A DNA stretch of 63,999 nt, the filler included, from Stramenopiles sp. TOSAG23-6 (lineage: Eukaryota): NCBI GenBank assembly GCA_900128565.1. It is 14 parts of 14 records of this genome, joined end to end, with 100 filler letters (N's around TTAATTAATTAA, not from the genome) between each part and the next. Parts side by side here need not be neighbours in the genome. Positions count along the whole stretch, not along the records: positions 9,203 to 13,694 come from LT637151.1; 13 more parts are not named here. One strand, written 5' to 3'. Below, in pieces: positions 1 to 23,178 of this stretch. The notes under the pieces are model-generated. The model was given only the letters and a program-made list of their open reading frames with translations, was not told where the DNA came from and made no database searches. The number at the start of each line of letters is the position of its first letter. The first letter of the stretch is position 1. Position numbers and translations under genes: made by a program.

Positions 1-103
1 AAAAAATATTTCAAAAAACAATTTTTTTACTTTGTTAGGTAAAAAAAAAAAAAAAAAAAAAAAAGTGAAAAATTCATACTAAACATTCATACTAAAAACG
101 TAC

Positions 104-1242
104 ACAGTACGACACAACCTTCAGACAAGCCTAATTTGTTACAAGGACCAGCACGGTAAGTCACACGGCGGAGGGCGTCATTTAAATCATCAGCGGATAT
201 AGAGTTACTGTTTCCATCATTCATAAGAAAGGCATCGGCAAAGTCATCATCACATTCAGTGAGACTTTCTACAAGTAAAATGTATTGTGAAAAAATATTT
301 TTTTTTTTTTTTTGGTAAAAAAAATTATTGAATTTTTGTTTTGTTTTGGAAAAATATTTCAAAAAAAAAAAATTGTTTGGTACAAAGTGTCCTGTGAAAA
401 AAAATATTTTTTAAATTTTGAAAACGTACGCTCTTGCTGATAGAGACTTTTCTAGGAGACTTTCAGAACCTTTAATATTTGAAAGAGAACGTCTGTTCAC
501 ACAAGATCCTAATTGATCACTCCATTCAATCAGTTCCATTGTTACTAAATCTACTATCGCACGAAAATTTGAACCTTCCCCGACTGGTAATTGAGTGACA
601 AGTGGGATGAAACCAAGTCTGTCACGCATGGTAGATACTGCCTGTATAGCGAAAAAAAAATTAAAAAAATCGTTAGGGACAAAATGTACAGTGAAAAAAA
701 AAATTACATTAACCCTAACCCTAATGAAAACGTACATGTTGCAGGTTCGCTCCTTCTCTATCTATCTTATTTACAAATATTACCCTAGGTATAAACTGGC
801 GCTTAGCTTGTCTCCACACTGTGAGTGTCTGTGCTTGAACACCAGCAACAGCGTCGATTATTGTTACTGCGCCATCCAATACGCGGAGAGACCTCTCAAC
901 TTCGTATGTAAAGTCAACATGACCAGGTGTATCAATTAAATTTATTTGGTGTTTTTTCCAGTCAAAACTAATCGCTGCGGAAGCAATGGTTATACCTCGC
1001 TCACGTTCTTGTGGCATAAAGTCGGTGACAGTATCACCATGATCAACATTGCCTGCAGTAATTACTGAACCGGAATAAAATAACATCCGCTCAGTTGTTG
1101 TCGTCTTTCCTGCATCTACGTGAGCTATTATACCAACATTTCGCACTTCTGAGGCCGGTGCACAAGTACTTATACCACGCTTGCACAAGATAAATTTATT
1201 GAAATGTCTACGCACAATTGAAAAAGAATACATAAATGCCAT
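104..1242 (-). CDS. GFM2: Mitochondrial elongation factor G2 / ribosome-releasing factor 2, 5' part (exons 1242-736, 641-430, 279-104; runs off contig)
   Basis: [30 protein letters not shown] and NKID G-domain motifs; N-terminal targeting-like peptide; spliced frame gives [15 protein letters not shown] and [12 protein letters not shown]. Confidence 0.85.
280..429 (-). mobile_element. Introner-family intron, GT-AT
   Basis: GTACGT...CACAATACAT; phase 2 (GC|T) restores the EF-G helix AR-A-LLVESL. Confidence 0.75.
642..735 (-). mobile_element. Introner-family intron, GT-AG, containing (TTAGGG)2
   Basis: GTACGT...CTAAC...TATACAG; phase 0. Confidence 0.8.
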
Positions 1243-1526
1243 CTACTTCACCTGAATTTGTGTTGCAAGTGTGTGTCACACAATATAGCCTTCGTACTAG
1301 TAGGACTTAGCTAGTAATATATCTATGTAGTAGGACTTTTGCTCAAGATGAACACACACACGCGTGTCAGTGCTGACTACGACTACTCAAAATTTGAAAT
1401 TTCATGAAACTGTCAGCTTGCTTGTTCGTGTTGTCAGTTATATAATATAGTATAGCTTATTTTGTACATTGTACGTATATTTTAGGTGCGAACAAAGAAA
1501 ACATCAAATAATACATCGATATAAAA

Positions 1527-3438
1527 ATGAGCTCGTCGATACGACAGGCAACTCCAGTTCTAGACATTGACGGGAAACAATCTTGGTTAATGGCACGTCG
1601 TTTTGCTTCTTCACCTAGGGAAAAACGAAACGGACATAAATCATTTTTACCTGTAGGCCTGGATGATTGGTTTAACTCACCTCGAAGTATGCCAGCATCA
1701 ATAGTAAACACTGAAATAGGTCCCGAAACAAGAATTTGTTATGCATCATATCGTGTACTATCTATCCCCAAAATCAATACTGCGTCTAATACTTTCTCGA
1801 TAAATTTGCTTTTATTTATTCTCTGGGATGAACCAAAATTATATGGACAACTCAGTGAATCTGACTGCATTGATTGGAGTAAATATTGGTCACCAAACAT
1901 TACCATTGCAGACGTTAGAAGTTGTAATGCAGATTTTTTTACCACTTTACCACATACTAAACCGAAACTGATCAAATTTGAAGGATGGGATAATGTATGT
2001 TTTATTTTTTTTTTTACAAAAAAATCGAAGTTTTTTTTTTTTTGGTAAAAAAATTTTGTACCTAACAATTTTTTTTAGATTTTTTGAAATATTTTTCCAA
2101 AATACATGAAATGGTTTTACATGTGCAAAAGTTAAACTGTTTAGTTGGAAATAAGTTTAATTTGATTAACTTTCCATTTGATGTTCAAGTTCTTGACGTA
2201 GGTTTTCTTTATGAATTTTTTACCTATTCCTTTTTTTTTTCGTACGAAATTTTGTACCTAACAAATTAAAAAAAAAATAAAAAAAAAAAAAAATATTTTT
2301 TCACAATACAGATTACCTTACGACCAAAAGAGAACGCCACTTCGGTATTAATTCGGTCAATGCCTCAGCAATATTCAACATTTTTTACATGCATTAATCA
2401 ATATGTAAATGATGGGAATCCAGAATGGGAAATTAGAAAACCACATATTAGAGAAGGCTTTGATAGCTGGACTTTAAACAGGACATGTACTTTTTCATTA
2501 TGAATTTCATTTTTTTTTAAATTTTTTTTTCGTACGAAATTTTGTACCTAACAAATTTTGAATTTTTTTTAAATATTTTTTTACAATACATATTCGACGT
2601 TAAGTCTTATAATACCAGTACGAAGGTACACATCCTTCTATTTTTACAAAGTTTTCTTTCCAGCCTTTTTTATTAATGCATTTTCGTTGACTTCATTTGC
2701 CATTGTTGGAAATCAAAATCATGTACTTTTTCATTATCAATTTCAAATTTATTTTTTTTTAATACGAAATTTTGTACCTAACAAAAAAAAAAAATTTTGA
2801 AATATTTTTTCACAATATATGTCCACGAGAGATTACATGTAATTCTGACAGTTTTGTTATCCCTCATTGCTTTTAAATTAGTGACTATTTCGTGGGCACC
2901 TCACGTGTCGTATCTCACAGCCATGGTACGTTTTATTTTTTTTCAAGTTTTTGTCTAAATTTGTTTTTCGTACTTAATTTCGTACCTAACAAATTGTACA
3001 AAAAAAATATTTTTTCACCATGCATGATAAATATTTATTTTGTGGTTTTGGATATCAAGCTTTATTAGCTACATTTGTATGCATTCAAGCAGCAGCAAGT
3101 GGAGATGATGATGATGATGAGGTGTATGATCTTATAGGGGCTCTCACATTTTCTATAAGTTATGCTGTTTTCCACTGTATTTTATTATTTTGGTGGTACC
3201 TTCGGCATCGTGAAACTTGTACTTTTTCTAACCCTAGCCCTACGAAATTTTCATTCCAAAAAAAAAAAGTTTTAAACTTTTTTTATACAACATTTGGTAC
3301 CTAAACGCTACTAACGATTATTTTTTTTTTAATATTTTCCACTGTACATTGCACGCGCTTTCAATTTCTGATGATAAATGGAAATTATTCAAAAAAGAGA
3401 ATTCTAGAAGTTTTTCTCTTGGTGAAAAAAGTAAATGA
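1527..3438 (+). CDS. Pentameric ligand-gated ion channel subunit, Cys-less/Pro-loop type; 7 exons (1527-1994, 2108-2197, 2312-2486, 2592-2722, 2821-2925, 3026-3218, 3350-3438)
   Basis: YWSPNI, LINFPFDVQ, pre-M1 RRYTSFY, M2 ERLHVILTVLLSLIAF and PHVSYLTAMDKY motifs; one open frame after removing six family introns. Confidence 0.85.
1995..2107 (+). mobile_element. Introner-family intron, GT-AT
   Basis: AT|GTATGT...AAAATACAT|; phase 0; AT duplicated. Confidence 0.8.
2198..2311 (+). mobile_element. Introner-family intron, GT-AG
   Basis: GTAGGT...CACAATACAG; same internal motifs, AG in the same register as the AT of other copies. Confidence 0.85.
2487..2591 (+). mobile_element. Introner-family intron, GT-AT
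   Basis: Phase 1 (T|AT) gives YSTLSLIIPVRR. Confidence 0.8.
2723..2820 (+). mobile_element. Introner-family intron, GT-AT
   Basis: GTACTT...CACAATATAT; phase 0 into M2. Confidence 0.8.
2926..3025 (+). mobile_element. Introner-family intron, GT-AT
   Basis: Restores conserved YLTAM|DKY. Confidence 0.85.
3219..3349 (+). mobile_element. Introner-family intron, GT-AT
   Basis: GTACTT...CTGTACAT; phase 1; open frame to TGA at 3438. Confidence 0.65.
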
Positions 3439-3637
3439 CTTAAATAAAAATAATCTTTAAACTTATTACATTTACTACATTAAAAAATAAATATAAAACA
3501 TCAATGAATTCTTGATCTATATTTAAATATATATTTAAATATATATTTGAAACCATACAAAAACATATTATATATATGGATAATTAGTGAAATATTATCA
3601 TATTAATTAAAAAATATATGAAAAGGGTAACCATTAC

Positions 3638-3723
3638 ATGTATTGTAAAAAAAAAAAAAATCGAAATTTGTTAGGTACAAAATTTCGTACGAAAAAAAAT
3701 TGAAATTCATAATGAAAACGTAC
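3638..3723 (-). mobile_element. Introner-family copy downstream of the stop codon (putative 3' UTR intron), GT-AT
   Basis: Full consensus GTACGT...CGTACGAAATTTTGTACCTAAC...TACAATACAT; no frame to validate. Confidence 0.65.
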
Positions 3724-3737
3724 ACTAGACACGAAAC

Positions 3738-3875
3738 TTATTTATTTTATCTTGGAGAAACATTTTGAGTCTTATACACTACACTACACTACAAGAACAA
3801 AAAACAAAAATTATTTATTTTTTCTTGGAGAAACATTTTGAGTCTTACACACTACACTACAAGAACAAAAAACAA
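3738..3875. repeat. Imperfect tandem duplication (~70 bp unit) of the gene 3' end
   Basis: TCTTGGAGAAACATTTTGAGTCTTA...CTACAAGAACAAAAAACAA occurs twice. Confidence 0.8.
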
Positions 3876-4451
3876 TAAGAAAAACTAATGCACCAATTAT
3901 AAACTCTGGAAGTATGATTTTTGTAAAAAACAGACCAAAATCCATTGCTGACGTTATCCACATTGAACTATGCGTAATACTATTAAATCTGTCACAAGTA
4001 GATACATCGAATTTATGACTATTCAATTTTGTTCGCTCGTCAAAAGATACAGCGTTGGTTTGAATAATTTCCCAAGGCTGAATTTTGGGTAGTATAGATA
4101 AAAAAAATCCATTTATGGTCCTTCGAAGATCGTTGCGTGGCCAATGCGCATTACCGCGATACAAACCTACATATATTGTGAAAACAAAAAACAATTTTGT
4201 ACAATTTGTTAGATACGAAATTTTCTATTAAAAAAATCTTTTAGGTTTAGGTACAAAATTTCGTACGAAAAAAAAATAAAACCTACATATTCTGCGCTCC
4301 AACCATCTCCTTGAATGTTTACAAAATGCTCATTCGTGTCTTTATCATTAAGCATTACTTTACACAACATAGCTTCCAGAGATTCCTGACTCAAGTTTCT
4401 TAAAATCGGATTATGCAAATGAAGATTCAATGAAACTTTCGCGCCATCTTC
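3811..4451 (-). CDS. Hypothetical protein, 3' part, with C-terminal TM helix (exons 4451-4287, 4170-3811)
   Basis: Open frame across a family intron; hydrophobic FIIGALVFLIVFCSCSVVC. Confidence 0.6.
4171..4286 (-). mobile_element. Introner-family intron, GT-AT
   Basis: Phase 0; 12-bp direct repeat ATATGTAGGTTT spans both junctions. Confidence 0.75.
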
Positions 4452-4505
4452 ATGTATTTTGGAAAAATATTTCAAAAAAAATCTAAAAAAATTTGTTAGG
4501 TACAN

Positions 4506-4604
4506 NNNNNNNNNNNNNNNNNNNNNNNNNNNNNNNNNNNNNNNNNNNTTAATTAATTAANNNNNNNNNNNNNNNNNNNNNNNNNNNNNNNNNNNNNNNN
4601 NNNN
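4506..4604. other. Artificial contig spacer (N-TTAATTAATTAA-N); also at 9103, 13695, 18282, 22868, 27452, 32034, 36613, 41188, 45762, 50336, 54910, 59483
   Basis: Same ~100-nt spacer with stops in all six frames; contig lengths fall monotonically. Confidence 0.97.
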
Positions 4605-4641
4605 AAATAAATTAGATCGAAGTAAGAGAAAAAATATTAAA

Positions 4642-5820
4642 ATGATAGAAACTACATCAAAACTTTCGACTGAAGTTGGTCGGGTGCAACAAAATAGGCA
4701 ACAAGACGTGCCTCCACATTTACAGAAACAGATTAAACTGAGGAAGCAAATGGCACAAAATATAAACGAAAAGAGAGAAATGCAAGAAAAACTTCGGATG
4801 CAGCAACGCCAGCAAAGGCAACACCAATCAAAAAAGAAGGCTGGTGTATATAATGAAGAAGGTGGGGGTGCTGCAGGTGCAGCATTAAATACTCATATTG
4901 GTATAGTTTCTACACCAACTTCTTTTCAACGCGAGCAAGGTGTGTCGCCAAGCCTTTCACCCCAAGCTCGAAATCGAAGATTGAAAGTGAGACATCAACG
5001 CATGAAGGAGCAACATCAAGGTGAGGAAAAGTCTACAACGACAAAAACACATGTAAAAAATACAGCCATTCCGGCAGTTCAAAATGAATTAAGCTATGAG
5101 GATGACGATGCAAGCTTTGTTTCGGAGTTTTGGGCTGGGGTCGAAGAACATGCATCATCTTGGATACCTGCTGAGAATATTAATGATGAAGTATCTTCTG
5201 ATAACTTTTCACCTATAGGTCAACTAAGTGAAGCATTACCAAGGAATGTCGCATCAGAAAATATACAAGGTGAAGGACATAAAACGACTGCCAAGCGTCT
5301 GTTACGTGGCGATGAAAATAATATTCCTCATAACCATACGAATAATATATTACCACAGGAATGGTTGGAAGATTCTGCGGTTCCCATTTCGATTCCAGGT
5401 TTAGGACTAGGCAGAGGTCCTGACACTCCTTTACCAGGTCAGAATTACCAGGATGCTAATACTGGAAGTAATAGAGCTCGTTTTGCAGCTGGAGAGTCAA
5501 ATATGAAACCCCAAGAAACAAGGCTTGGTCATCTAGAATTTTTGAAAGAACTTCGTGATGAGGGTCGAATTAATGANNNNNNNNNNNNNNNNNNNNNNNN
5601 NNNNNNNNNNNNNNNNNNNNNNNNNNNNNNNNNNNNNNNNNNNNNNNNNNNNNNNNNNNNNNNNNNNNNNNNNNNNNNNNNNNNNNNNNNNNNNNNNNNN
5701 NNNNGGTCTATGTGCTTTTCTCCAGGGGAAGGAATATCCTCAGGCCCTTCACCAGAAACATCAAATACGGAAGATAGTCCGGTGATGTTTCAAGTAGTTC
5801 AAAATCCAAATGATAAGTAA
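4642..5820 (+). CDS. Hypothetical Q-rich coiled-coil/disordered protein (possibly 5'-partial, internal gap)
   Basis: Long ORF; no recognisable domain. Confidence 0.55.
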   Translation: MIETTSKLSTEVGRVQQNRQQDVPPHLQKQIKLRKQMAQNINEKREMQEKLRMQQRQQRQHQSKKKAGVYNEEGGGAAGAALNTHIGIVSTPTSFQREQGVSPSLSPQARNRRLKVRHQRMKEQHQGEEKSTTTKTHVKNTAIPAVQNELSYEDDDASFVSEFWAGVEEHASSWIPAENINDEVSSDNFSPIGQLSEALPRNVASENIQGEGHKTTAKRLLRGDENNIPHNHTNNILPQEWLEDSAVPISIPGLGLGRGPDTPLPGQNYQDANTGSNRARFAAGESNMKPQETRLGHLEFLKELRDEGRINXXXXXXXXXXXXXXXXXXXXXXXXXXXXXXXXXXXXXXXXXXXXSMCFSPGEGISSGPSPETSNTEDSPVMFQVVQNPNDK

Positions 5821-5920
5821 TATATATTTTGATTAAACAAAGAATAAACGCTTTTATAACAAACAAAAATATTAATTCAACATTGTACGAATTATATATG
5901 GTGTTGTATGACTAATATAT

Positions 5921-7764
5921 TTAATCAATGTCTTCGTCCTCTTCTTCATTTCGTTTATCTTTTGGGTCTTTCTCTGAGGCCGATCTTATAGCTTCAGCAA
6001 CTCTCTCCTGCTCTCGTCGAGACTCTTCATTAGACATTTGTGTGCCCGGTACCCCCGGTGTTGTTTGTCGTGATTGTGAACTATCACCTCTCACTTGATT
6101 AGCCATCTGATTAAATTAGATAAAAAATTGAAATGAAAACGTACACGCCCCTCATTTGACTAGCAATTTGCATTATATTTGGATTGGCCATCGCTTGTTG
6201 TATCATTGTATTTAAATTATTCGATCCTAACATCGATTCAAAGTTATTTAAATTATTCGATCCTAACATCGATTCAAAGTTTGATTGCGTTTGACTGTTG
6301 CTGCTTCTCGAATGAATCCCACCTTCTGTATGATCCCTTGAAAATTGTGTTGGGGTTGATTTGGCTTGTTCTTTCATATCATTTGTACATGATTGAATAG
6401 CATTTTCAATTACTTGCCTCAATCGTTTAATTAACATGTATTGGGAAAAATATTTCAAAAATTTGAAATTTGTTAGGTACAGAATTTCTTACAAAAAAAA
6501 TGAAAAATCATGATAAAACGTACAAATTTTCTTGATCTCCCAGAGGTAAAACTAAAAAGTGCTCTTTTTTACCTTCATCATTAATATTATATTGATCGCG
6601 AAATCCAAACGCCTTCACAGCATTGATGCCACCAGGTAACTTTCCTAAATTCTTTTGAAATAATTTATTTGAAACTCTTATTTTTCGATATTTTGGATTT
6701 GTTGGATTTGCAATAACATTATCTCCGAATTTTCTGATAGTTTTTAATGCCAAGAGAAACGTATTATTATATTTATTATTAGTAACCTTGCAATGCGTCT
6801 TCAGAGTTCTAATTGCATTAATAAGACTTGAAAGTCCTGATTTGATTTGAGTATTCTTTGCACTTTGAGTTGCATCACGGGAAGAGCTAGGGTTAGGGTT
6901 GGTGACATAAGTTGGTATTACAGCATTACCAGTCATATTAGCGTCCAATTTCTTTACTATTTTAGCCACATCATTCAAAAATGTAGAGTGACTACTTTTA
7001 CAAGTTTCATGTCGAATTTTATACTGGGATAGTAAACAACCCCAACTCTCAGGCGCCCCGGAAGATATGACACTAATACCATACTTATTAGGGTTAGGGT
7101 TCTCTGTAGACACATTATTAATATCTAGAGGTGGGTTGATCGGATATTCTTGTAAAGTATCGAATGATGTTTTAGCATGTAAAACAAAAAGTACAACATT
7201 CGAATCAGGATATAAAATTTGTAACTCACTTTGAAGATCATAGACCTGTTGCTGTTCACTTTCGCACCAGATGAGAATCAATAGAGATGGAGGAGACAAC
7301 GACAATAGGCCATGCAATCGCTTAACTTGAGATTCGTGAATTCTTTTTTGCTTTTCTAGTAGATTGAATTGTTTTGTTTCTTCTTCAAATTTAATACGGT
7401 TTTCAGCTTCTTGTATCTCTAACATGGCTTGATGCGCTATTTCCCACTTTTGCTTCACTAATTTCAATAATGATTCAGATGTCTCTTCGAGTTCACGATA
7501 TTCCTCAACTAACTGAAGAACTTTTTTTATCATTTTTGGACCGTACACAGCCTTATCTGAATGTGATTCTGTTGCACGCGCTTGGAATTTTTCCACTGTT
7601 TTTTTCAATTCCATCATGGTTGTCCTATTCAAGTTCAACTCATCCAATAATACTCGTAAAGCGGAAGCATCACCTTCTTTGGAAGATTGTAAACGGATTT
7701 CTAGCTCTTTATACTTTGTTTCACATTCTAAAAGAGAAGCTGATGTCGATTTAAACAACGACAT
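5921..7764 (-). CDS. PUB-domain protein with N-terminal coiled coil and STI1-like C-terminus (exons 7764-6524, 6435-6147, probably 6106-5921)
   Basis: NVIANPTNPKYRKIRVSNKLFQ...GF PUB motif; MIQQAMANPNIMQIASQM STI1-like motif. Confidence 0.75.
6436..6523 (-). mobile_element. Introner-family intron, GT-AT
   Basis: Phase 2 (TT|G). Confidence 0.75.
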
Positions 7765-8040
7765 TTTGTACAAAGCTATGCGCTTTTGATTATCGAAGTG
7801 ACTCCACGTCAGGAGCTATAGAGTAAATATTCTCTTGATATAAAAAAACCTACCTTTATATAATATCGGGGAGAATATTGATTGTCGAGACACTGGTCAG
7901 TCAAACACGATGAGCTCGAGCTCGAGCTCAGCTGAGCGTAATCTTGAAGACGTAGAAAAATTCAACTTTTCGGTTTTCTTTTCGTTCAATTTCAAATCAA
8001 TACATTTATTTTTATAATCTCATTAAATTTTTTGAGTTGT

Positions 8041-9102
8041 TCATTCTATTTTCTTACTTCTAACACGTAACTCAACAATACTATGAGCATCCCCAGCAGA
8101 GATATTTGATACTTCCACAACATTCCTTCTCTCTTCTCCACCAATAAAAAATGTAACTTCACTGGGATGTATTTTGGAAAAATATTTGAAAAAAAAATCG
8201 TTAGGTACAATATTTCGTACGAAAAAACAATTCGAATTTGAAAAAAAATAAAACATACAGTATCGACACTTTTGTGTTTCATATGTTGAATAATTCCTAA
8301 TCGCGAGTGCTCTGCATTTCCCCAAGAAAATACCTTTGAATGACTTAGAGGATTTAGCCATATCGCTGGTAATATTTTTTCTATTTTGTTTATATTATCT
8401 CCCTCTTCTGAACAGACTTCTTGAATTATTTTTTGCACTTTAGAACTAGAAACTTTTGGTCCTGTATTTATTTTATACCCTTGTTCAGTATCATTGGGCA
8501 ATTTTGAGACCGCAATAGCATGACAGTTATGAGTAGCGACTGATTGGATCTTTGGAAAACGAATATCACCTACATAAATAGGCTCAAATCCGTAATTTCG
8601 AAATTCGTTTATCATCATAAATTTTCTGACTTGAATTGGCTTGAAAAAGTTTCGTTCACAAAACATGTTTATTCCGCATACTCCAAACACATTAGATCCC
8701 CAAGACCAAAGAGAACCATCTGATAAAACAGCTAATGAATGGCGCAGACCTGTTGCAACGCAAGCAACTGTATTTTTGGTTTTAGTTGGAGGATCGTTTT
8801 TTGTTTCAACTTGACCATTGTCATCAATTGTACCATCACGCTTTTTTTCTCTAACTTTGCTTTTTGAGTCAAGTTTTTCATAAAGCCGAAAAAGTATTTC
8901 CCTTTCTCTTTCAGAATTAACTGCCCAAAATATATTTTTTTGTATTTGAATTGGATACGATTTCCATTTAGCTTTGTTTTTTGACTTTTGTTCAGCATTG
9001 TTTTTTGACTTTTGTTCTCTTTGTGCTCCTAGTAAATGAACCCATTTTTTACAAAAGTCTTGAGCTCTCACCCAAACTAAACTTTCTTTGGATCCCTCTT
9101 TC
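8041..9102 (-). CDS. RCC1-repeat protein, 3' part (exons <9102-8259, 8166-8041)
   Basis: VATGLRHSLAVLSDGSLWSWGSN, FSWGNAEHSRLG, ISAGDAHS. Confidence 0.8.
8167..8258 (-). mobile_element. Introner-family intron, GT-AT
   Basis: Joins SVDT|PSEV...ISAGDAHS and completes an RCC1 blade. Confidence 0.8.
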
Positions 9103-9254
9103 NNNNNNNNNNNNNNNNNNNNNNNNNNNNNNNNNNNNNNNNNNNNTTAATTAATTAANNNNNNNNNNNNNNNNNNNNNNNNNNNNNNNNNNNNNNNNNN
9201 NNTACGAAATTTTGTACCTAACGATTTTTTTTGAAATATTTTTCCAAAATACAT

Positions 9255-10213
9255 GTGTGTCGATAGAAGAAAAACTTTTAAAGGCAGAAAAAGAGTTAAA
9301 ATTAAAAGATAAAGTTTTGGAAACAATGGAAGAGCAATTGAGCGATTCCAGGAAATTAACAGCAGGTCTTGAATCTGAAAATAGAATCTTAGCATCATTA
9401 AAAGCCGCACATCCTAATGCGCAAATGTCAGATACTACTATTACGAAATCAACAAATGCAAAAGAAAGTAACACAGATATTGGAAAAGATAATGATCATG
9501 TAGCCAATTTATTTGATAAGATTGGAGGCGTCAAAGAACAAAAAGGAGATTCAAAATTAACGAATACTAAAATTTCTCGAGAGATCTTTGTTAAAAATAC
9601 TCCCAAAATGTGTACAAATAATAGTAATGAAAGTAGCATGTCAAAAATTCTGCGTAGCCAACGAGATCGATTACGTAACCGTGTTTTAGAATTAGAAGCT
9701 TCTAGAGATAACGAAATTGCAAAAGGTCGTGTGAGGGATGCAAAACTAGAACGAATAAGATGTGAAAATAATCGTCTTTTAGAAAAAATAAACTTTCTTC
9801 ATTCGTACAAATCAACGAGTCAGTATGGAAAGAAAGATTCTATGTCTTCTTTTTTGACATATGATACTGAAATAGGGATGCATGTATGGTTTCATTATTG
9901 ATTTCAAAATTGATTTCATTTTTTTTTCATAGTAAATTCTGTACCTAACAAATTATCAAACTTTTTAACATATTTTTTCACAATACATGAGAAAATGTAC
10001 GCTGATTATACAAATCCGTTCACTCGGTTTAAAAGAAAGCATCAGCAACTTCAATATAGGAAACTCTCCGCGATTGAAAGATTTTCTCTTGAAGTACATC
10101 TTTTAGTATTCGTCACGCTATTTCGTTGTAGTGGTGTTCGCGCTTCTTCATACCACACAAATCAATATACGGGTAATGGTGTTCGATTTACTTCTAGTAT
10201 AAATCATGGTTAA
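9255..10213 (+). CDS. Golgin CASP/Coy1 (CASP_C domain), 3' part (exons 9255-9883, 9989-10213)
   Basis: SQRDRLRNRVLELE, NNRLLEKINFLHSY, YxxYTNPF and HLLVF match the CASP C-terminus. Confidence 0.8.
9884..9988 (+). mobile_element. Introner-family intron, GT-AT
   Basis: CAT|GTATGG...TACAT|; phase 0. Confidence 0.8.
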
Positions 10214-10278
10214 TAAATTACACATTTTAATGTAAAAAAATCGTAGTTAAACGGTACATTTTTTATTTTTTTTTTTAT

Positions 10279-11187
10279 TTATCGCTTATTAATGTGCCCA
10301 AAAAACTCTGCTCTCAACTCAGCTCCCTCTGCACCCTTGAAAGATCCGCACATGGCGCGAGTGATAGTTACACTTCCGGGTTTTGTAACCCCCCGCATTA
10401 CCATGCACATATGGGATGCTTCAATCATAACAGCAACACCTTCAGCGTCAACAAGTTGGTACACAGCATCAGCAATTTGTGCCGACAAACGTTCTTGTAT
10501 TTGCAATCTACGAGCAAAAACTTCAGACAATCGAGCTAATTTACTCAATCCAATAACTTTACCACCTTTTCGTGGGATGTATCCAATATGAACATGTCCA
10601 AAAAAAGGAAGCATATGATGCTCGCAAGTTGAGTGAAGTGTTATATCTTTAACCACCACCATACCTCGTTCACATGTTGATGCAACTGCACTAGGGTTTG
10701 AATCCTCTACATCAAAAAGAGCATCCGCAACTATATCTTTTGGTGTTTGGGTATATCCCTTATTGCATTCTAGTAATGCCTTAACCACGCGGCTAGGGGT
10801 TTTTCTAAGACCTGGGCGATCAGGATCTTCACCAATACACTCTATCAGGGTTCGAACAGCCTTCTCCATCTTGCCGGTTTTATCTGATAAAGAACTAGTC
10901 TGAGAGTTTCCTTCTGTTGAGGACGGGAGAGATAATGTATTATATTCATATTTTGCATTTGAACTATCAGAATCAGGCGAATAATTGCTCAGTGAACCAC
11001 TATCTTCCGCTAAATTAGGTAAACCAACACCGATATTTGGTGACGAGAGACTGACAGTAATCGGAACTTTTTCTTCGCAACATTCACAGTCTATTGAAGT
11101 TGATTCACCCATATTATAGTAGGTTTGCTCCTTAGGTAATCTAGTGTTTTTTTCTTTTGAAATTCGTCGTCGCTTAGTTGCCGACAT
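10279..11187 (-). CDS. GCH1: GTP cyclohydrolase I
   Basis: [49 protein letters not shown]; intronless. Confidence 0.95.
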
Positions 11188-11412
11188 TTGCTGGAATAAT
11201 CAGTAAATTGTATCGTTCAATTTGACTGATATATTTTATAAACTGCTACCTAGGCTAGCAAAGGTTTCAAGATAAAAAAAAAATTCCAATTCATGGAACA
11301 AAACTGCTCACTTATCATTTTTTTTTTTCGGTTACAAACAAACACAAGTAAAGTTTATGTCTCACTTTCAGATCTCTTTTAACACATCTTATCCATATTC
11401 TTTAGGTAAAGC

Positions 11413-13694
11413 ATGTATTCCCGCGCAGAGCGAGTAAAAAAGTTCCGACTCGACTGTGGCGATGGCCTGGTATGGAAAGGTGGATCATGGCATCCAGGTA
11501 ATGAATATCTTAAACAGTTAACAGTAAAAAATCTCTCAACAAAAGTCCAAAGTATTCGGTACAAATTGCCATCTACAAAGTTCTTCTCCATGGAGTTTCC
11601 AAAAACGATAACTTTGAGCCCTGGAATGTTTATGACCCTAAATATCACCTTTCGTCCGATACAATATGATGTATATGATGATTTTGTTGAGTTTGAAACG
11701 AAAAATGGAACATTTAAAGTAGGCATCAAAGCGACTCTAGCTCGTCTAGATGTCACTTGCACTGAGTCACTTGATTTTGGAATTTGTCCAGTTAATGAGA
11801 TACATACCCAGTGGTTCGACTTCAATAACTCTGGTCAAGTTCCCGTAACATTCAATTGGGATTTTAAAAAACCTTTTGAGATTATACCAGCTAAAGGAAA
11901 AATAGAAGCTGGAAAGGTGCGTAAAATGCTAGTAAAATTTTCACCAATGGAAGCAAAAGTGTGGAAAAGCAAATGTGTCTGTAACATAAATGAAGGGAAG
12001 CAATACCGTATCGTTGGTGTTATTGGAACTGGAAAGTACCCTTTTATTCAATTTGAAAAAAAAAGTATCGAATTTGGTGATGTTCTTGTCGGCTGTAAAA
12101 AAGATTTATGTACAAAAAAAGTGGTTCTACGTAACTTCTCGGAAGTGTATGCGACATATAAGCTGAAGCACCTAGAAATTGATAGACCTGCTGCTTTTTC
12201 TATTAAACCTGCCGAAGGTCGCATTGAGCCACATTCATCAACTACACTCACTATTAAGTACACGTCGGTTACAAGTGGACTTTATGTATCTGATAACTTT
12301 TCGATGATTACCCCTGGGGGAAATTGTCCTCAACTGAATTGCTCTGGAAAAGGAAAGAGCCCAGATATTTTCATACGTAAAAGGGTTCCTGGTGCTAGTG
12401 ATACAAATACTCAGCTAAATAATAGAAACTGCTCACTAAATTTTGGTGACACCAAAGTTAATAGTGTTTCTTCGCAGATTTTATATTTAAAGAACAATAG
12501 TAATTGTGATGCTGAATTCCAATTTGTCGCTAAAGAGAATGGTCTTTTTTCATTTGATAGAATATGTACGTTCTTCATCAGAAATTTCAAATTTTTTTAC
12601 GTAATTTGTCTNNNNNNNNNNNNNNNNNNNNNNNNNNNNNNNNNNNNNNNNNNNNNNNNNTTTTATTCAATACGTTTTTCATCAGAAATTTCAAATGTAT
12701 CTTTTTTTTCATAGAAAATCTAAAACATTCGTACCTAACGATTTTTAAATTTTTGGAATATTTTTTTATGATACATCTGGAACAATTCCACCTTTCATTG
12801 AAGTGTTTGTTCGTATTACATTTTCTCCAAATGTAGCAGGAAATTTTTATCGCCGAATTTATTGTTTATTTCAAAATGCAGCTCCAAAGTTCATAGATTG
12901 CATTGGAACGGCATTTGATGAATCGAACAGACCTGCTCCATTGTATCAGAGACACATTGATAGATTCCGCAGACGAAGACAACTTGGCTTTAGTAAGATG
13001 TACGTTTCCATCATGAATTTCAATTTCTATTTTTTCATACGAAATTTTGTACCTAACGATTTTTTTCTTTCTGAAATATTTTTTCAAAATACATGTCACC
13101 TGATCAAATTGAGGAACTTATGGAGTCTTCAAATTCTTCAAAGTTGGCACTAGCAGAGAGAGAAGTCATACCAAAAGGTTCATGTCGTTCGGGAGAGTCT
13201 ACTAAATCTGAGGTGTACCACACCAGAGATTTTTTTGTACCTTCAAATGATAAAAAACGCTTGGAGATTACAGTTGCTCAAGATGAAATTAATTTTGGTG
13301 CCTGTTCACGAAACTCTGGGATGGTAAAAAAGACAGCCCGAATTACTAATCACACAAGTGCAAAAGTAGTATGCCAGTGGGTAATGCCATGTAGTCAAGA
13401 CGGTGATGATACGATAGATTTTGGTGTAATTCCGTCAGTGTCGGATATTGGTCCGAATCAAACAGTGACTTTCCAAATATGCTTTCGACCTTCACAGGAT
13501 AATTTTTATTATTGTCAAGAACTAGAAGCGTTTTGTTATTTCAAAACGCAACGTAATTTTCGTCTCGTTACAGAGGAATCGTTCACTCCGCCTTGGCATA
13601 TACCTGTCCGAGTGATTGGTCACACATTTTCTGGTACGACACAATTTTTACCAAGTTTTAAATTAGAATTGAAGAATAACCGAATTACATTTCC
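11413..13694 (+). CDS. CFAP65: Cilia- and flagella-associated protein 65 (CCDC108), 5' part (exons 11413-12565, 12777-12999, 13095->13694)
   Basis: Tandem ASH/Ig-like repeats; W.PG.EY.K.L..KN, YRRI.CL and FRLV....F.PPW patterns. Confidence 0.8.
12566..12776 (+). mobile_element. Introner-family intron, GT-AT (contains N gap)
   Basis: Phase 1 (T|CT) gives FDRISGTIPP. Confidence 0.7.
13000..13094 (+). mobile_element. Introner-family intron, GT-AT
   Basis: Phase 2 (AT|G); ATGT at both junctions. Confidence 0.8.
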
Positions 13695-13849
13695 NNNNNN
13701 NNNNNNNNNNNNNNNNNNNNNNNNNNNNNNNNNNNNNNTTAATTAATTAANNNNNNNNNNNNNNNNNNNNNNNNNNNNNNNNNNNNNNNNNNNNTTTGTA
13801 CCTAACAAATTTAAGTGTTTTTTTTTTGAAATATTTTTCCAAAATACAT

Positions 13850-15910: not shown

Positions 15911-17147
15911 TTAAAAAAAGAAGTTAAACCTTCTCAATAATAAAAATACAATGGCAAGAAATATAAAAAATGCTAANAATAAGAGCACATCATTAACAAA
16001 GTCATTTTCACTCCGTGGATTAATTTGTGAGGCAGTATTATTTGGTACAGAAGAAACTATAGGATTAATTGAAGGGCCACCCATTCCAAGATGACTCCCT
16101 TGCATTGTGGGGAAAGGCACTTGATTACCTGGAGAAACAAAGGGATTTTGAGCAGATGGTACATTAGAAAATATTCCAGACAAACTACTCGCTCCACCAG
16201 ATCCTACAGTTTTATCAATTCTTAATTTACAATTTTGGGCTCTAGGGTTAGGGTTAGGGTTCACATGTTCAGGATTTGGATGTAGATGATTTAGATGATT
16301 GTGTGTTTTCTGCTCAATGCCATGGGTGTGATTTGTAACCAATCTATGTCTAATAGAACTAGAGTTGGGGTTGTTTTCTATTCTATTGCATTTTTCACCT
16401 GTATCAGAAAATGNTTGCACAACGTTGTTAGGGTTAGGGTTGGATAATTTGTGAATATGTAATTTTTTAGGTTGGAGAAGCTTCTGAGCCTCCCGAATAT
16501 CCGCTGTTTTCAAGATAGGAGTCGTTTCGAGCCACATTTTTACATGTATTGTGAAAAAGAGTTTTGAAAATTTTAAATTCGTCTACAACATTTGACTCCA
16601 AAAAAGAAAAATGTTTAGGTACGAAATTTTGTACGAAAAAAAATAAATGTAAAAATTCATCATAAAAAAAACGTACATGATCTTGATATACTTTAGGAAT
16701 ATATTTTGACTTTTCTGGAGACTTGCGAGAAATACGAGCAGCTCGTTTGCGTTCCTTTTTTGACCAATCAAGAGAACCTACGGCCCCTTCGGGTGGTGTT
16801 GGTAGGAAACTTATCAGAGCTTCTAGAATTGTTCGAATACCCCACGCAGGTTGCCAAGATTCAGGATGATGAGCAGAAAGACTCAGACATATTTTTTGGC
16901 GTACTTCAAAGCGTCCATTAGGTGTTAGTAACATAATATTTGGGGGTTTAAAAGGATACTCGGCTGGAAGAATAATACGACCGTGGTAGATTCCACCCTC
17001 AAACTCTGTGTCGGGTGCGCCTCTGATAGTGAAGTACCACTGGCGCATATCATCCTCCAAGGGCAACGCAGTATATAAAACACTCTTTGCGGCGCGCACN
17101 TCCCTCAGATCTGCGTGAATGCGTCGCATCATATTAGAAGATGACAT
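15911..17147 (-). CDS. UBE2J1: ER ubiquitin-conjugating enzyme Ubc6/UBE2J1 (exons 17147-16677, 16543-15911)
   Basis: YPFKPP, TPNGRF, KICLSLSAHHPESWQPAW; C-terminal tail anchor. Confidence 0.9.
16544..16676 (-). mobile_element. Introner-family intron, GT-AT
   Basis: CAT|GTA at both junctions; phase 0; connects the E2 domain to the TM-anchor frame. Confidence 0.8.
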
Positions 17148-17535: not shown

Positions 17536-18191
17536 ATGTCATTTGAAGTTCCATTGTCAAGTGTTGCTTGCGGTTCGGCACACACTTTACTTCTGGCGCA
17601 TAATGGTTCAAGCATTTATGCTTTCGGGGAAGGACGCTATGGTCAACTTGGAAACGATANTTCTGATGATCCTAACACGGTCAAGTTAGTGAGCAAAGAC
17701 AAAACAAATGATAAAAAATTATCTTGGGCTAACTTCACTGCAAATCACGTTGCTTGTGGTTCAAATCATTCAGCCTTAGTCACGGAAGAGGGATATTTGT
17801 ACACATGGGGGCGACACAATAAGGGTCAATTGGGAAATATTGATTTATGGGGAACAAATGCTTTTGTTAATACAAAAATTGAATTGAGATCGTGCACGAC
17901 CCCGTGTATTGTGAATAGTTTTCTGAGAATGGATTCCATTATCAGATACGTCGATTGTGGTTGTGATTTTACAATGGCACTGGTACGTTTTCAACTTACA
18001 TCTAAAATTATTTTATTTTTTCAAAAGAAAAACTTACCTAACAAATTTCAAACGTAAAACAAAGATATTGTATTACAATACTTGACGAACATGGTTTTCT
18101 CTATAGCTGGGGTTTAGGAAGTTATGGTAATTTAGGGCATGGAGATACTTTAGACCGTAAAGAGCCAACGGCTGTGAAGGACATACAATGT
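17536..18191 (+). CDS. RCC1-repeat protein, 5' part (exons 17536-17982, 18084-18191)
   Basis: Repeated VACGxxH/YxWG/GQLG blades. Confidence 0.85.
17983..18083 (+). mobile_element. Introner-family intron, GT-TT
   Basis: Restores FTMAL|DEHGFLYSWG; the nearest upstream AG (18064) is out of frame. Confidence 0.8.
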
Positions 18192-18437
18192 GTACGTTTT
18201 ATTTTTTTTTGTTTTCGAAAAAAAAAAAATCGATTTTTTTTTTCGTACGAAATTTTGTACCTAACAATTTTTTTAGAATTTNNNNNNNNNNNNNNNNNNN
18301 NNNNNNNNNNNNNNNNNNNNNNNNNTTAATTAATTAANNNNNNNNNNNNNNNNNNNNNNNNNNNNNNNNNNNNNNNNNNNNTTTCGTACGAAATTTTGTA
18401 CCTAACGTTTTTTTTCAAATATTTTTCCAAAATACAT

Positions 18438-19397
18438 GCTTGGCAAGCAAGAGACGAATTAAGTGAGGGTAAAATGTATGCCAATACGCTTTCCTCTGGT
18501 TTAGATGATTACCCTAGATCATCTCATCCTGATTCTCAAGAACGTCATGTGGATCTTTATTCATGGATTGCATGTGGTTCCAGAATCATGGCTAGGGTTG
18601 CCAAAATTATTGAGTATAAAGAGAAAGAAATTTATTATTTAAAGCTTGAAAAAAAACTAATCGATAATTTAGATTTTCTTCATTGGGATGAAAAAAGTAA
18701 TTCATACGCTGATTTTGGATTACATATAAATGGTCAAGTTAGAGATTGGCCCATTGCAAGATGTGCTGATATGAAACAACGTAAAATTGTGGAACGCCCC
18801 GCCTTGAGTGATGATCCAGAATCTGTTTGTGTGCCACCTTTAAAGTATTATGGTCTTTCAAGAGAAGAGTCTGGAAAAGTGAAAAATATGTCAGTATATG
18901 GAACGAATGATGTCAATAATAATCCAATTTTGCAATTTGTACCCAGATATGGTTACGTTTCAATTTTCCCTCTCATTTTACGTGTTATCCCTCCTGACTC
19001 TCCACGTCTTCTTGTTGTAATGAAAATGCTACGTAATGAGAAACATCTATGGACACCGTGGGGTTTGCGTTCTCTGTCTAAACATGATACATTTTATGGC
19101 AAGTCCAATGCACCAGGAGATGATCCATACTGGAGAGGGCCTATTTGGTACAATATAAATTATTTAGCATTATCAGGTCTTTATTATTATGCGAATACAG
19201 ACGGGCCATTCCAAACGAAAGCAAACGAGATTTATCACGAACTTAGGGAAAATGTTATAATGAATATTTTTGGAGAATGGAAACGAACGGGGTTCTTCTG
19301 GGAGCAATATAATGATGAAACAGGTGAAGGACAAAAAGCGCATCCATTTACTGGTTGGACTGCCACAGTTGTTAACATTATGGGGGAGTTGTATTGA
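18438..19397 (+). CDS. MOGS: Mannosyl-oligosaccharide glucosidase I (GH63), last exon
   Basis: TLSSGLDDYPR, HVDL, YWRGPIW, WEQY, PFTGWT. Confidence 0.92.
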   Translation, partial: AWQARDELSEGKMYANTLSSGLDDYPRSSHPDSQERHVDLYSWIACGSRIMARVAKIIEYKEKEIYYLKLEKKLIDNLDFLHWDEKSNSYADFGLHINGQVRDWPIARCADMKQRKIVERPALSDDPESVCVPPLKYYGLSREESGKVKNMSVYGTNDVNNNPILQFVPRYGYVSIFPLILRVIPPDSPRLLVVMKMLRNEKHLWTPWGLRSLSKHDTFYGKSNAPGDDPYWRGPIWYNINYLALSGLYYYANTDGPFQTKANEIYHELRENVIMNIFGEWKRTGFFWEQYNDETGEGQKAHPFTGWTATVVNIMGELY

Positions 19398-19585
19398 AAT
19401 GTTTATAAATCATGTACTTTTCATACAAAGTCATTTTTCCTATAACTACAGTGGTGAAAAACTATGATTAAGTACACGCAACACTGAGATATCGTTTTTA
19501 TTTTACTCTTCTCATTTCTACAAAAAAAATCTTATAAATTTTTCATAATAATACTGAAATTTCATATGGTTGTTTCCCCCATTAT

Positions 19586-20998
19586 TCACGCCCACCCTTT
19601 ATCGATCATCTCTTGTTCCTGCTTTAACCTTTTCTGCGTTAACTGTTGTTCCTCCATGAAATTTTTGGCAAAACTCGTCATCTGTTCAATAAATTTCGGG
19701 TTCTCCCACAATGCAACTAGACTAAAACCTCCAGCAGTTGGTGCAGCACCGACAGGTGTAGTAGGAGCTACAGCATCAGCTAGACCAAAACCTCCAGCAG
19801 CTGGTGTACCAAAACCTCCAGCAGCTGGTGCACCAAAACTTCCAGCAGCTGGTGCACCAAAACCTCCAGCAGCTGGTGCACCAAAACCTCCAGCAGCTGG
19901 TACTGGTTCACCAAAACCTCCAGTAGCTGGTGTACCAAAACCTCCAGCACCAAAACCTCCCGTTGCTGGCGCATGGCCAACAGGTACAGCAGTAGGCACA
20001 ACATGTACAGTAGCAGGGATTAGTGATCCAGGCAATGCTGAAGCAACACGTGTACGTGATTGTGTTGCAACAACAGGTTCAATATATCTGTCAATCACGC
20101 GATTAATTGCATCAAAATCAAGCCATTTCCTTTGAGATGCTTTCCACACCAATCCTGTTTGCGCCAATAAATCAAGTAATCTCGCACCGGTTTCTCTAAA
20201 CTCCTCACCATACCCACTTACCCAATCGTCAACGATGAAATTCTTTAACCTGGCAATATTATTTTCGTCTTCCTCAAAAACCGCCTTTGAAAGTTCGGTT
20301 GGCAAGCTAATGGAATTTCTAGAATTATTCACAGTCAGAATTCTCATTATAATCTGAGCTATGGACCATTTGTCGAATGAACCATCTGATGTTCTCGTTA
20401 ATCTCTCAGGTGGACAATACTCTTCTGTTATTATAACAGGGTATTGGCCAAACAAGGTAGCAGCTCCAAAATCTGCGATATCAAGCGAACCATCATCATT
20501 GACGAATAAGTTTTCAGGTTTGATATCGTTGTGCGATATTCTTTTTTGTTCAATTTCTTTCAAACCATCTTCAACATTCGAAAGGCTCTTCACCAATCGA
20601 AGCATTTCAATTCCAAATACTTTTTTATCGGGCTCTGTCGGAAATTTTTTAAAGTACTTATTCCTCACAAACAAATACTTTTCCAAAAAGTCCTTTTTCT
20701 TATAATATTTAAGTTTAATAGATAAAGTGCTGTCGTCCTTTTGCAAAATTCGGATAACATGAGGACAATCGCGAACCTTTTCCAACATTCCACTTTCCGT
20801 TTCGAAGTCATCCCGACGATTAAAGACTTTCCAGCAACTATCCGTATCACAATAAAGGTTTGCCTGGCCACTAGCTACTTCTAATCGGTTGAATCCTGGA
20901 AGGTTGATTTGAGGAACACTGCGCAGCGCCGCCTTTGAAAAAATGCAGTGTAGCATGAAAAATATAGCCATGCTTTTAGGAAACAAAAACATCCTCAT
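19586..20998 (-). CDS. Divergent Ser/Thr protein kinase with signal-peptide-like N-terminus and C-terminal GGFG repeats
   Basis: HNDIKPEN, DFG, PPE, DKWS; the upstream ATG at 21127 is out of frame in the second copy. Confidence 0.8.
   Translation of the reverse strand: MRMFLFPKSMAIFFMLHCIFSKAALRSVPQINLPGFNRLEVASGQANLYCDTDSCWKVFNRRDDFETESGMLEKVRDCPHVIRILQKDDSTLSIKLKYYKKKDFLEKYLFVRNKYFKKFPTEPDKKVFGIEMLRLVKSLSNVEDGLKEIEQKRISHNDIKPENLFVNDDGSLDIADFGAATLFGQYPVIITEEYCPPERLTRTSDGSFDKWSIAQIIMRILTVNNSRNSISLPTELSKAVFEEDENNIARLKNFIVDDWVSGYGEEFRETGARLLDLLAQTGLVWKASQRKWLDFDAINRVIDRYIEPVVATQSRTRVASALPGSLIPATVHVVPTAVPVGHAPATGGFGAGGFGTPATGGFGEPVPAAGGFGAPAAGGFGAPAAGSFGAPAAGGFGTPAAGGFGLADAVAPTTPVGAAPTAGGFSLVALWENPKFIEQMTSFAKNFMEEQQLTQKRLKQEQEMIDKGWA
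19726..19968 (-). repeat. 24-bp coding tandem repeat (GGFGAPAA)n
   Basis: CCAAAACCTCCAGCAGCTGGTGCA units on the + strand. Confidence 0.9.
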
Positions 20999-21300
20999 CT
21001 TAATGATCTGAGATTGAAATGAAAATTTAAGCACGACTATTTTTAAAGGGTAGCGAAAATTCTGCTTCTTTGCGTCTTCGTTTGGATTCGTTTGGATTCG
21101 TTTGGATTTTGGAAAGGCGCTGTTCATTTACCATTTCCGGGTAACTTCAAATATCCAAAAACTCCAAAAAAAACAGATTGTAATCGGGGCCGTGGTCGGT
21201 ACGTTAAATACGTGACGAAAATGACACTGGCACATAAAAAAGTCTTTTGGTGCCAGAGTGCATATCTACAGATGCAATCTACAGTTATCATAATCTAGTG

Positions 21301-22796
21301 ATGGGTAATTCTCCTAGCTCTAAATCTTCCCGATCGACTGTTAGATCTCTTTCTTGCTCTAGTCCCATAGAAAAGAATGCTTCAAATTTCCCAGAACTTG
21401 TTGAGATGAAGTCACCTCGCAGGCAATCCGTTCATGCTGGTTTAGAAAATCCTCTTGGACATAATAACTGCTTTCTGAATGTGTGTATACAAGCAATGTG
21501 GCATTTAGATGCATTTCGTGATGCAATTTTACGTTCAGAGCATTCTCTGATTGATAAATCGCTTGAAGGATCTGCTTCTGCTTCGTCTGACCCTAATAAT
21601 ACCTTGTTATATAAAATCCACCAACTGTTTAGACGATATGCGTCTACAGGATCATACAGTGGACCTTTAAAGTCTAGTGATATTCGCATAACATTGGCTA
21701 GTTTATACGGGAGCCAAAACCGTTTCCAACTAGGTCAAATTGACGATGCAACAGAGGCCTTTGATTGTATTTTAAAGTGTATACATGCTAATCACATTTC
21801 CGATAAACCAGGATTACAAAATGCCTTGGCGAAAATTTCCGTAGATGGTCAACTTGATGTTAGTCGTAGTATAGATATTCCATGCGAAGAAGGTATGAGT
21901 CGCGGTTGTGTCGCTTGCTCTGTGTTTGGATATGATTCGTTTGATAAAAGTGTCTGTGGTACCTGTGGTATTACTTCTGAGCCTATCATTTGCCGAGAAT
22001 TAGTTTACCTTGTATATGCCCATGAACTTTCTGCTGTGATATATGAACAAAGATCTACAAAGGAGACACCTGAACTATCTAAATTACTCAGGCAAATAGT
22101 ATGCACGTTTTCATCATTATTTTTTTACAAAAACGTTTTTTCGTAGTAAATTTTGTATCTAACGAATTATTTGACGAAAAAAAATATTTTTTATAAGACA
22201 GTGAGAGCCCATCCACCAAAATCATGTCCATCCAAAAATGAGGATAAAAATGTATCACAATCTGAGATATCTTTAAATGATTCTAATAGCCCAGATTGTA
22301 AAACAGCAAACAAAACTAAAAATATATCATGTGAAGGTAAGGCGAATACGGATCGTCCGTTTTCAAAATTAAATTTCGAATTTATTTGTTTTTTCGTACG
22401 AAATTCCGTACCTAACGAATGTTTTTAAGAAAAAAAATATTTTTCACAATATATGTTGGTGTGTTTCTTTACCAAAAGTTTTTGTTCTTAGCCTCGTATG
22501 GTCATCAGATAGATCATCAAAAGTAGAAATAGAGTGTGCTTTAGACGTAATGTCTCAACAGCTGTAAGTTGTCCACTTTAATTTCAATTTGGTTTTCGTA
22601 CGAAATTTCATACCTAACAAGTTGTTTTTCTAAAAAACATATTTTTCACAATACTTGAAACTTCGTGAAGTTTTTCAATGCCCCCAAGTTGAATTAAACA
22701 AAGAGGCGCAAAATTCTATCTATAGTTTTTCTGGTATGATTTGTTATTATGGTAAGCATTATGTTGCATTTTTCATCAGTCGTGCTCAAAAAACAT
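21301..22796 (+). CDS. USP53/USP54-like ubiquitin C-terminal hydrolase, 5' part (exons 21301-22102, 22202-22354, 22455-22563, 22657-22796)
   Basis: GLENPLGHNNCFLN Cys box, DATEAF, LSLVW, YYGKHY His box; MGNS N-terminus. Confidence 0.85.
22103..22201 (+). mobile_element. Introner-family intron, GC-AG
   Basis: GCACGT donor; phase 1 fits AAGACAG|TG. Confidence 0.6.
22355..22454 (+). mobile_element. Introner-family intron, GT-AT
   Basis: GTCCGT...CACAATATAT; gives DRWCVSLPKVFVLSLVW. Confidence 0.75.
22564..22656 (+). mobile_element. Introner-family intron, GT-TT
   Basis: GTAAGT...CACAATACTT; phase 2 (CT|G). Confidence 0.75.
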
Positions 22797-23178
22797 GTAT
22801 TTTTTCATCATTCACTCTTAAAAAAATATTTTCTTTTTTTTTGAGTAATTAACGAATTTCGAATTTGNNNNNNNNNNNNNNNNNNNNNNNNNNNNNNNNN
22901 NNNNNNNNNNNTTAATTAATTAANNNNNNNNNNNNNNNNNNNNNNNNNNNNNNNNNNNNNNNNNNNNCTCTCTCTAAAATTATTATGATTTGAGATTTCG
23001 ATTTTTCAATTGCACACATTATATGATATGATATAGGTTTCATATTACATTTGCGTTTCACAGTATATAAAACATCACCACATGGCATCAAGGAACCTCT
23101 TTGAACCTCTTTGAACCTCTTTATAACACTAAATTTTTCGGTGTCCACATATTAGTGTGAGTAATTAATTGCACAACC

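Follow-up and report, generated by a model that had tools for sequence, protein, structure and literature searches.

Short multi-copy introns derived from mobile elements, termed introners, are known in a DNA-transposon-type form from Micromonas, Aureococcus and Chrysochromulina: the element carries its own donor, the acceptor comes from the target duplication, and removal restores the coding sequence. Introner families with a duplication but without an inverted repeat are also described (both in the accessible parts of bioRxiv 10.1101/2022.06.06.494994 and PMC11282704). In the tunicates Fritillaria borealis and F. pellucida, MITE-derived introns have non-canonical donors, the reported adaptation involves duplicated U2AF and m6A, and the U1 5′ ends lack strong complementarity (PMC13326754). 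In Entamoeba and Mastigamoeba the U1 5′ end has co-evolved with an atypical donor used genome-wide (bioRxiv 10.1101/2022.06.08.495308). Among transposons, the ISL2EU (PHIS) group duplicates a 2-bp AT within an A/AT/T target and has GG termini and inverted repeats of 6-259 bp; it was confined to animals in that survey (PMC4482050). These accounts, and the comparisons with them below, follow the accessible parts of the sources. For MAST-3 stramenopiles, a literature search returned no paper dealing with non-canonical introns or with U1, and the accessible parts of PMC5778133, 10.64898/2026.04.17.719054 and PMC12130899 mention neither; supplements of the introner surveys could list the family described here.

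The window, the whole stretch of 63,999 nucleotides that was analysed, belongs to Stramenopiles sp. TOSAG23-6. The organism probably belongs to the MAST-3 marine stramenopiles: two exons of its genome match, at 100% and 90% identity, proteins with source names containing 'MAST3'. The flagged element at 9884-9988 (plus strand) is a 105-nt, phase 0 family intron with GT..AT ends and of the subfamily B type, reading GTATGG ... CACAATACAT between exon ends ..GCAT and GAG. It splits one CASP_C gene, with profile matches on both flanking exons: positions 6-152 in the upstream exon (9203-9883, plus) and 182-215 in the downstream exon (9989-10213, plus). The donor CAT/GTATGGTT (9881-9891) begins with the exon AT at 9882-9883, the left copy of a 2-bp duplication. 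Further along the same strand lie a conserved box (9924-9949) ending in GTACCTAAC (9941-9949), with a putative branch A at 9948, and a 3′ box (9973-9988) ending in CACAATAC plus AT (9987-9988), the right copy of the duplication and presumed acceptor.

Curation left 31 unique complete copies of the family in the window, compared with 34 in the initial annotation. Raw counts are inflated because near-exact 4.5-kb blocks are repeated: two blocks within 45862-54909 equal the contig at 41288-45761 (99.98%), and a third at 55010-59482 is a second version of 18382-22867. These repeated blocks, set between N-linker-N joins, are assembly duplicates. Besides the flagged copy, GT..AT introns are found on the plus strand at 1995-2107, 2487-2591, 2723-2820, 2926-3025, 3219-3349, 12566-12776 (with an N gap, in a CFAP65-like gene), 13000-13094, 22355-22454 (second block copy at 58970), 23752-23864, 24134-24224, 30322-30447, 31126-31303 (branch box duplicated), 43181-43279 (repeats at 47755 and 52329), and 43739-43845 and 43966-44066 (two further repeats each). 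On the minus strand they lie at 280-429 in an EF-G2 gene, 4171-4286 in a 12-nt direct repeat, 6436-6523, 8167-8258 (at most 96% identical to copies on other contigs), 16544-16676 and 27746-27850; another minus-strand GT..AT copy, at 3638-3723, lies outside an ORF and probably in a 3′ UTR. GT..TT introns occur at 17983-18083 (plus), 22564-22656 (plus, second copy at 59179), 32345-32452 (minus, exon end TT), 32810-32935 (minus) and 43481-43657 (plus, exon end TT, two further repeats), and GT..AG introns at 642-735 (minus, in EF-G2), 2198-2311 (plus) and 30785-30958 (plus).

The family extends across the genome. Our sample, the de-duplicated window plus 82 assembly loci (764,016 bases, biased to long contigs), contains 397 branch-box matches, which gave 208 complete calls and 192 unique copies. 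At least 30 open codons flank 169 of the 192 copies on both sides (88%), compared with 18-26% in the other two frames. The density of 0.447 boxes per kb corresponds to about 9,400 copies per assembly, duplicated contigs included, with none in a reversed-sequence control. Copies are nearly all sense within genes, the longer ORF being on the same strand in 243 of 267. They are about 100 bp long and share the core GTAYGTTTT...AATAC; genome-wide BLAST matches, of up to 96% identity, start and stop at intron borders in unrelated genes, and linkage among bases +4, +10, −11 and −8 defines two subfamilies (5′ versus 3′ end, P down to 2e-13). Similarity bounded by intron borders and linked subfamilies therefore indicate descent from master copies rather than convergence. 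Donors are GT in 163 of 177 copies. Nine of the 177 start with AT instead (AT..AT, and one AT..AC), including the first urocanase intron of locus L009; such A+1 copies are expected if the usual contact between the first and last G of an intron is relaxed. Starts in GG and GA that repeat the first bases of the next exon were seen at loci L119 and L130. The 169 copies end in AT (139), TT (12), GT (8), AC (4), AG (4), AA (1) or GA (1).

As in DNA-type introners, the element is multi-copy, has its own donor, gains its acceptor through the target duplication and leaves the coding sequence restored. The published examples co-opt an AG and duplicate 3, 4 or 8 bp, whereas here the duplication is 2 bp and mostly AT, with GT, TT, AC and GA ends as well. 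The family shares AT duplication with ISL2EU (AT at both exon and intron end in 96 of 157 copies) but differs in target, C/AT/G rather than A/AT/T, and in termini, GT..AC rather than GG. Because of this mismatch and the shortness of its inverted repeat, the family is filed as an introner family and not as a MITE. The initial annotation had read inverted ends, ATGTA/TACAT, as the mark of a MITE-like transposon inserted at AT-like targets. These letters are present, yet once the AT, which is its own complement, is set aside, the inverted repeat proper to the element shrinks to GTA/TAC, or to GTAT/ATAC where +4 is T (44% of copies). At 3-4 bp it falls short of the terminal inverted repeat of at least 6 nt used in the accessible part of bioRxiv 10.1101/2022.06.06.494994, and it provides no evidence for a transposon; what stands is a repeated element gained as introns.

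The same annotation had suggested that the ends pair in RNA, with covariation as a check. We reject this pairing: shuffled sequences fold as well as the flagged copy (fold z = +0.86), the ends are paired in the MFE structure of only 43 of 157 copies, and pairs of 5′ and 3′ end positions show no covariation except +3/−5 (P 0.004, three copies). The proposed search for longer elements with these termini and a transposase ORF was equally negative among seven DDE matches (two Pfam families: five DDE_Tnp_4, two DDE_3), 10 orphan donors and 16 orphan acceptors. Several candidate drivers were considered and dropped. A Harbinger-type transposon on C2432 (L105 502-3610; also on C2433, C2439 and C2440) has intact ORFs, 28-bp inverted repeats and TAA flanks, and its ends are GGCC, not those of the family; its transposase gene is followed by a decayed family branch box. 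No family ends were seen at the DDE_Tnp_4 gene on C4153, and no repeats at the DDE_3 gene on C2340. An IS630/Tc1-like element on C304 (L119 823-4957) has its own 113-bp inverted repeats of 99% identity, and the acceptor-like motif 100 nt outside is not its end; it also contains a second long ORF followed by a family-like AT..AC intron, and is a possible vehicle for the family. Replitrons and ISL2EU, compared by published description, did not match. We lean slightly towards cut-and-paste of DNA by a transposase as the mode of spread.

The 2-bp duplication can be examined at the paired exon and intron ends. Within the window, exon and intron end in the same two bases in 16 of the 31 unique copies (14 AT, 2 TT), the very split given by the initial annotation for 34 copies, and 26 of the 31 have T at exon −1 (29 of 34 there). 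Since both ends favour AT, matches were tested by permutation, which gave 90.7 expected against 117 observed in 169 copies. A set of 158 copies, obtained by excluding 11 doubtful calls (two miscalls and nine weak acceptors), has 112 matches against 86.8 ± 2.8, and the highest value among 20,000 permutations was 100. Of the 26 introns with an end other than AT, 15 mirror the exon, against 1.5 expected. Ends called blind to the terminal dinucleotides behave alike: 90 of 115 match (74.8 expected), as do 8 of 16 non-AT ends (0.7 expected). Position −3 does not covary between exon and intron ends, and a 3-bp duplication is rejected. The match decays with age: 46 of 52 copies are mirrored in the youngest third, that is, among the copies most alike to others, versus 65 of 105 in the rest. 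Exon −2 A is least frequent where it is the wobble base (26 of 41 versus 75 of 91, p 0.026). Intron phases at AT (47:24:31) agree with random use of coding AT (44.6:25.8:31.6, p 0.88), and the target flanks are symmetric, with C favoured before and G after, A avoided at −3 and T at +1.

The claimed duplication is thus locus-specific and real, though not universal. It is absent in 46 of 157 copies. Among the 61 exons not ending in AT (169-copy set), 16 are mirrored and 38 precede an intron that still ends in AT; a non-AT exon end with an AT intron end is seen in 35 of 157 copies, 10 of them two changes away. A further 19 copies gave 13 matches against 13.3 expected, with little power since 18 of them end in AT. 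Some duplications are on the donor side: the first two intron bases recur in the next exon in 18 of 46 non-mirrored copies versus 12 of 111 mirrored ones (p 0.15 in the blind set), donor-side matches number 13 against 9.1 expected (P 0.005), with donors GG, GA and AT recurring at the start of the next exon, and in two copies the intron start and the next exon have 8 bases in common. Empty alleles were found neither in the assembly for window positions 1-13700 nor in the sample. Duplication at birth is the best reading of the mirrored ends, and a fixed classical duplication is one of several ways to obtain it.

The donor-side matches bear on the main rival, in which the same family spreads by junction homology. 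An excised or circular copy, carrying the junction palindrome TACATGTA, would integrate at CATG-like sites through recombination, break repair or reverse splicing into an R-loop, and either end could take up target bases. A fixed one-sided duplication does not predict matches at the donor. Junction homology would also suit the strict sense orientation (243 of 267), a target consensus that resembles the end-to-end junction, the many copies without duplication, an inverted repeat too short to use and the failure to find a matching transposase among the two DDE families searched; spliceosome-driven transposition has been proposed elsewhere (accessible part of PMC10996645). Against it, the duplication on the left side measures exactly 2 bp and prevails among young copies, and plain reverse splicing would give no target-derived intron ends. 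We consider this rival unlikely, though it deserves to be taken seriously beside insertion with a 2-bp duplication.

Where the 3′ cut falls can be judged from reading frames and homologues. In 109 of the 165 non-AG copies there is no in-frame AG from −6 to +30; the intron can be slid to GT..AG in one of the 165, and to AT..AC in 80. For the EF-G2 intron 429-280, AT is the best-scoring acceptor against a profile of 119 homologues, ahead by 17 bits of the nearest in-frame AG, which the public gene model uses at the cost of five residues. Both tested junctions in urocanase are best at AT, at near-invariant residues, and shift 0 is best in seven of eight paralogue-testable junctions. The Myb motif GKQCRERW (RERW) fixes the GT register. 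Judged by their homologues, EF-G2 and urocanase require the AT acceptor. The initial annotation's statement that excision of the element plus one copy restores the coding sequence agrees with these two genes and with the 88% of open frames. Public gene models P0001 and P0121 force AG or shifted sites, and conserved residues are lost in EF-G2 and urocanase. The flagged copy itself is a special case: it has an in-frame AG 3 nt downstream (9990-9991), a feature of just 4 of the 165 non-AG copies. One search returned no CASP homologues and another seven, distant and weak, for which acceptors 9988 (AT) and 9991 (the in-frame AG) score within 2 bits of each other; either may be the one used in this copy.

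RNA contigs were aligned to window positions 1-4504. One skips the GT..AG copy at 2198-2311 exactly and continues into the GT..AT copy at 2487-2591. A second skips 116 nt at 4171-4286, where the junction also reads GT..AG after a 4-base slide, and no unambiguous junction at an AT acceptor is present among these contigs. The contigs stem from runs with a small match share (0.05-0.08), and most aligned pieces derive from other repeat copies, which makes habitat and RNA depth uninformative. It might be supposed, then, that the major spliceosome does not remove introns at AT at all: that cryptic AGs, an AT-AC register, the minor spliceosome or a non-spliceosomal route operate, or that many copies are retained. 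The contigs, which prove splicing of a GT..AG copy only and leave one AT copy unspliced, would fit this, as would the 80 of 165 copies that slide to AT..AC and the 9 of 177 that start with AT. We nevertheless regard it as improbable, because 109 of 165 copies offer no in-frame AG, AG use would delete conserved residues of EF-G2 and urocanase, shifted registers break the Myb RERW, and the donors fit U1 and U6, with U12 not found in this incomplete genome.

Removal by the major spliceosome is consistent with the snRNAs. The only U1 found (G000:C1146:349-508, E 9e-13) lies between U2 and U4; it scores 54.1 bits against an Rfam gathering cut-off of 69.5, with diverged loops I and II. The U5, U2, U1 and U4 genes stand head to tail in a 640-bp cluster (L001 9-645, on C1146), with U6 separate (C3740). 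The U1 5′ end is AAACGUACAUG, which differs from the Rfam consensus AUACUUACCUG at three positions. These face exon −1, intron +4 and intron +7, where the family has T (86%), C or T (92%) and T (98%), and all three departures complement the family donor CAT/GTACGTTT, the exon −1 T included (C9 to A). Over 158 donors this U1 would form 9.2 Watson-Crick pairs on average at −9.4 kcal/mol, compared with 7.0 and −2.2 kcal/mol for the consensus letters; the flagged donor, CAT/GTATGGTT, would form 9 Watson-Crick pairs and one G-U. On paper, U1 has changed to complement the family donor, and this complementarity is new here.

The likeness to Entamoeba and Mastigamoeba is that the U1 5′ end is altered to complement the dominant donor. 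There the changes face intron positions, whereas here one of three faces exon −1, the donor belongs to a mobile element and acceptors are non-AG. Because the variant U1 complements the exon −1 T, the exon AT is, by sequence complementarity, insertion footprint and splice signal at once. The initial annotation, which traced this T to insertion, missed what is probably its other cause, namely a U1 whose altered 5′ end would pair with that base. U1 could on paper also pair with the acceptor CAT (84-94% at −3 to −1); pairing of U1 at the acceptor has a precedent in S. pombe.

A changed U1 would by itself account for exon CAT and donor, and raises the alternative that old introns came, by convergence or through homogenising gene conversion, to carry signals set by a U1 already changed, with mirroring a product of splicing selection. 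The non-mirrored class at N/GT sites resembling proto-splice sites also suits it. We find it very improbable in view of the whole-length similarity and linked subfamilies, the phases that fit random insertion, locus-specific mirroring beyond what one U1 sequence could produce, and four candidate GT-AG introns of ordinary look that coexist without the family body, a number not above controls (4 and 7). The four, at L072 7702-7569 (minus), L045 5735-5635 (minus), L069 681-743 and L074 8626-8527 (minus), one of them in a JAB/BRCC36-like gene, are candidates for surviving old introns.

A U1 with a canonical 5′ end was not found in the assembly: seven exact 11-mer matches (10 for the control) include no U1. 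The U1 5′ 20-mer hit three loci in a metagenome scan, none an snRNA. The variant U1 pairs poorly with three of the four candidate canonical donors; given this poor fit, the score below cut-off and the diverged loops, the genome may hold another U1 that the assembly lacks. Compensatory changes were sought in U2, U5 loop 1, the U6 ACAGAGA and the Prp8 segment around LTNAQRSGLNQIPNRRF, and all are canonical. As in major-type introns, the donors are complementary to U1 and U6, and most copies have a branch site CTAAC, with its putative branch A, able to pair with the U2 GUAGUA; the 3′ AG of that type occurs in 4 of 169. No U12 was matched in this incomplete genome, nor did the control match anywhere, and the family donor GTAYGTTT is unlike RTATCCTT, the U12-type donor motif. 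With regard to U2AF, duplicated and diverged in Fritillaria, one U2AF65-like gene was found in the incomplete genome, and 15 zf-CCCH matches include no U2AF35-like finger. As in Fritillaria, YAY precedes the donor and stands at the acceptor, 3′ AT is common, a few candidate canonical introns are left and the minor spliceosome was not found. Unlike in those animals, where donors are mostly non-GT, donors here stay GT (163 of 177) and U1 is complementary.

The whole is best explained, we think with fair though far from full confidence, by an introner with a 2-bp duplication that the major spliceosome removes with a matched U1. A non-coding mobile element of about 100 bp would insert mostly at coding C-AT-G, duplicating two target bases. 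Donor, branch box and U-rich tract would come with the element, whereas the acceptor would be the two duplicated bases, most often AT, so that excising the element together with one copy gives back the original mRNA. Over time the copy in the exon would drift while the one in the intron tends towards AT, and only sense insertions in genes would persist. U1, through its three substitutions, would pair with T at exon −1 and with Y at +4 and T at +7 of the intron. Cleavage at the 3′ end would fall two bases past AATAC, the dinucleotide itself being nearly disregarded and the strong branch box used. We infer the actual pairing of U1, the order of events and the manner of acceptor choice. More tentatively, the code as a whole may have moved from AG/GT...AG/G to AT/GT...AT/G: U1 would now read the exon AT footprint and the element start, U2AF35-type AG recognition would be lost, the AATAC box would set the 3′ cut, the element would supply nearly all introns, and AT, GT, TT, AC and GA acceptors and A+1 donors would all be spliced.

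The significance of the family rests more on the U1 match and the non-AG code than on the transposon signature. Few features of eukaryotic splicing are as conserved as the U1 5′ end and the 3′ AG, and here both appear shifted to fit a mobile element, a rare view of the splicing machinery adapting to an invader. This would be a second route of adaptation beside the tunicate one, by change of U1 and not by U2AF duplication. The genome allows direct tests of whether exon ends resemble intron ends (proto-splice sites) through insertion footprints or through selection, and of whether spliceosomes adapt to transposon-made introns. In practical terms, public gene models of the organism mis-splice these genes and lose conserved residues.

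A few further observations concern gene models and assembly. Among 58 family introns of length 3n, 14 are free of in-frame stops (for example, L034 684-782), and gene finders would take them for coding sequence. A few donorless branch boxes next to opposite-strand ORFs (L040, L073, L007, L012 and others) are probably decayed copies in 3′ UTRs. Contig breaks often fall inside family copies, and some family introns (window 43481-43657 and 642-735) contain telomere-like CCCTAA/TTAGGG units.
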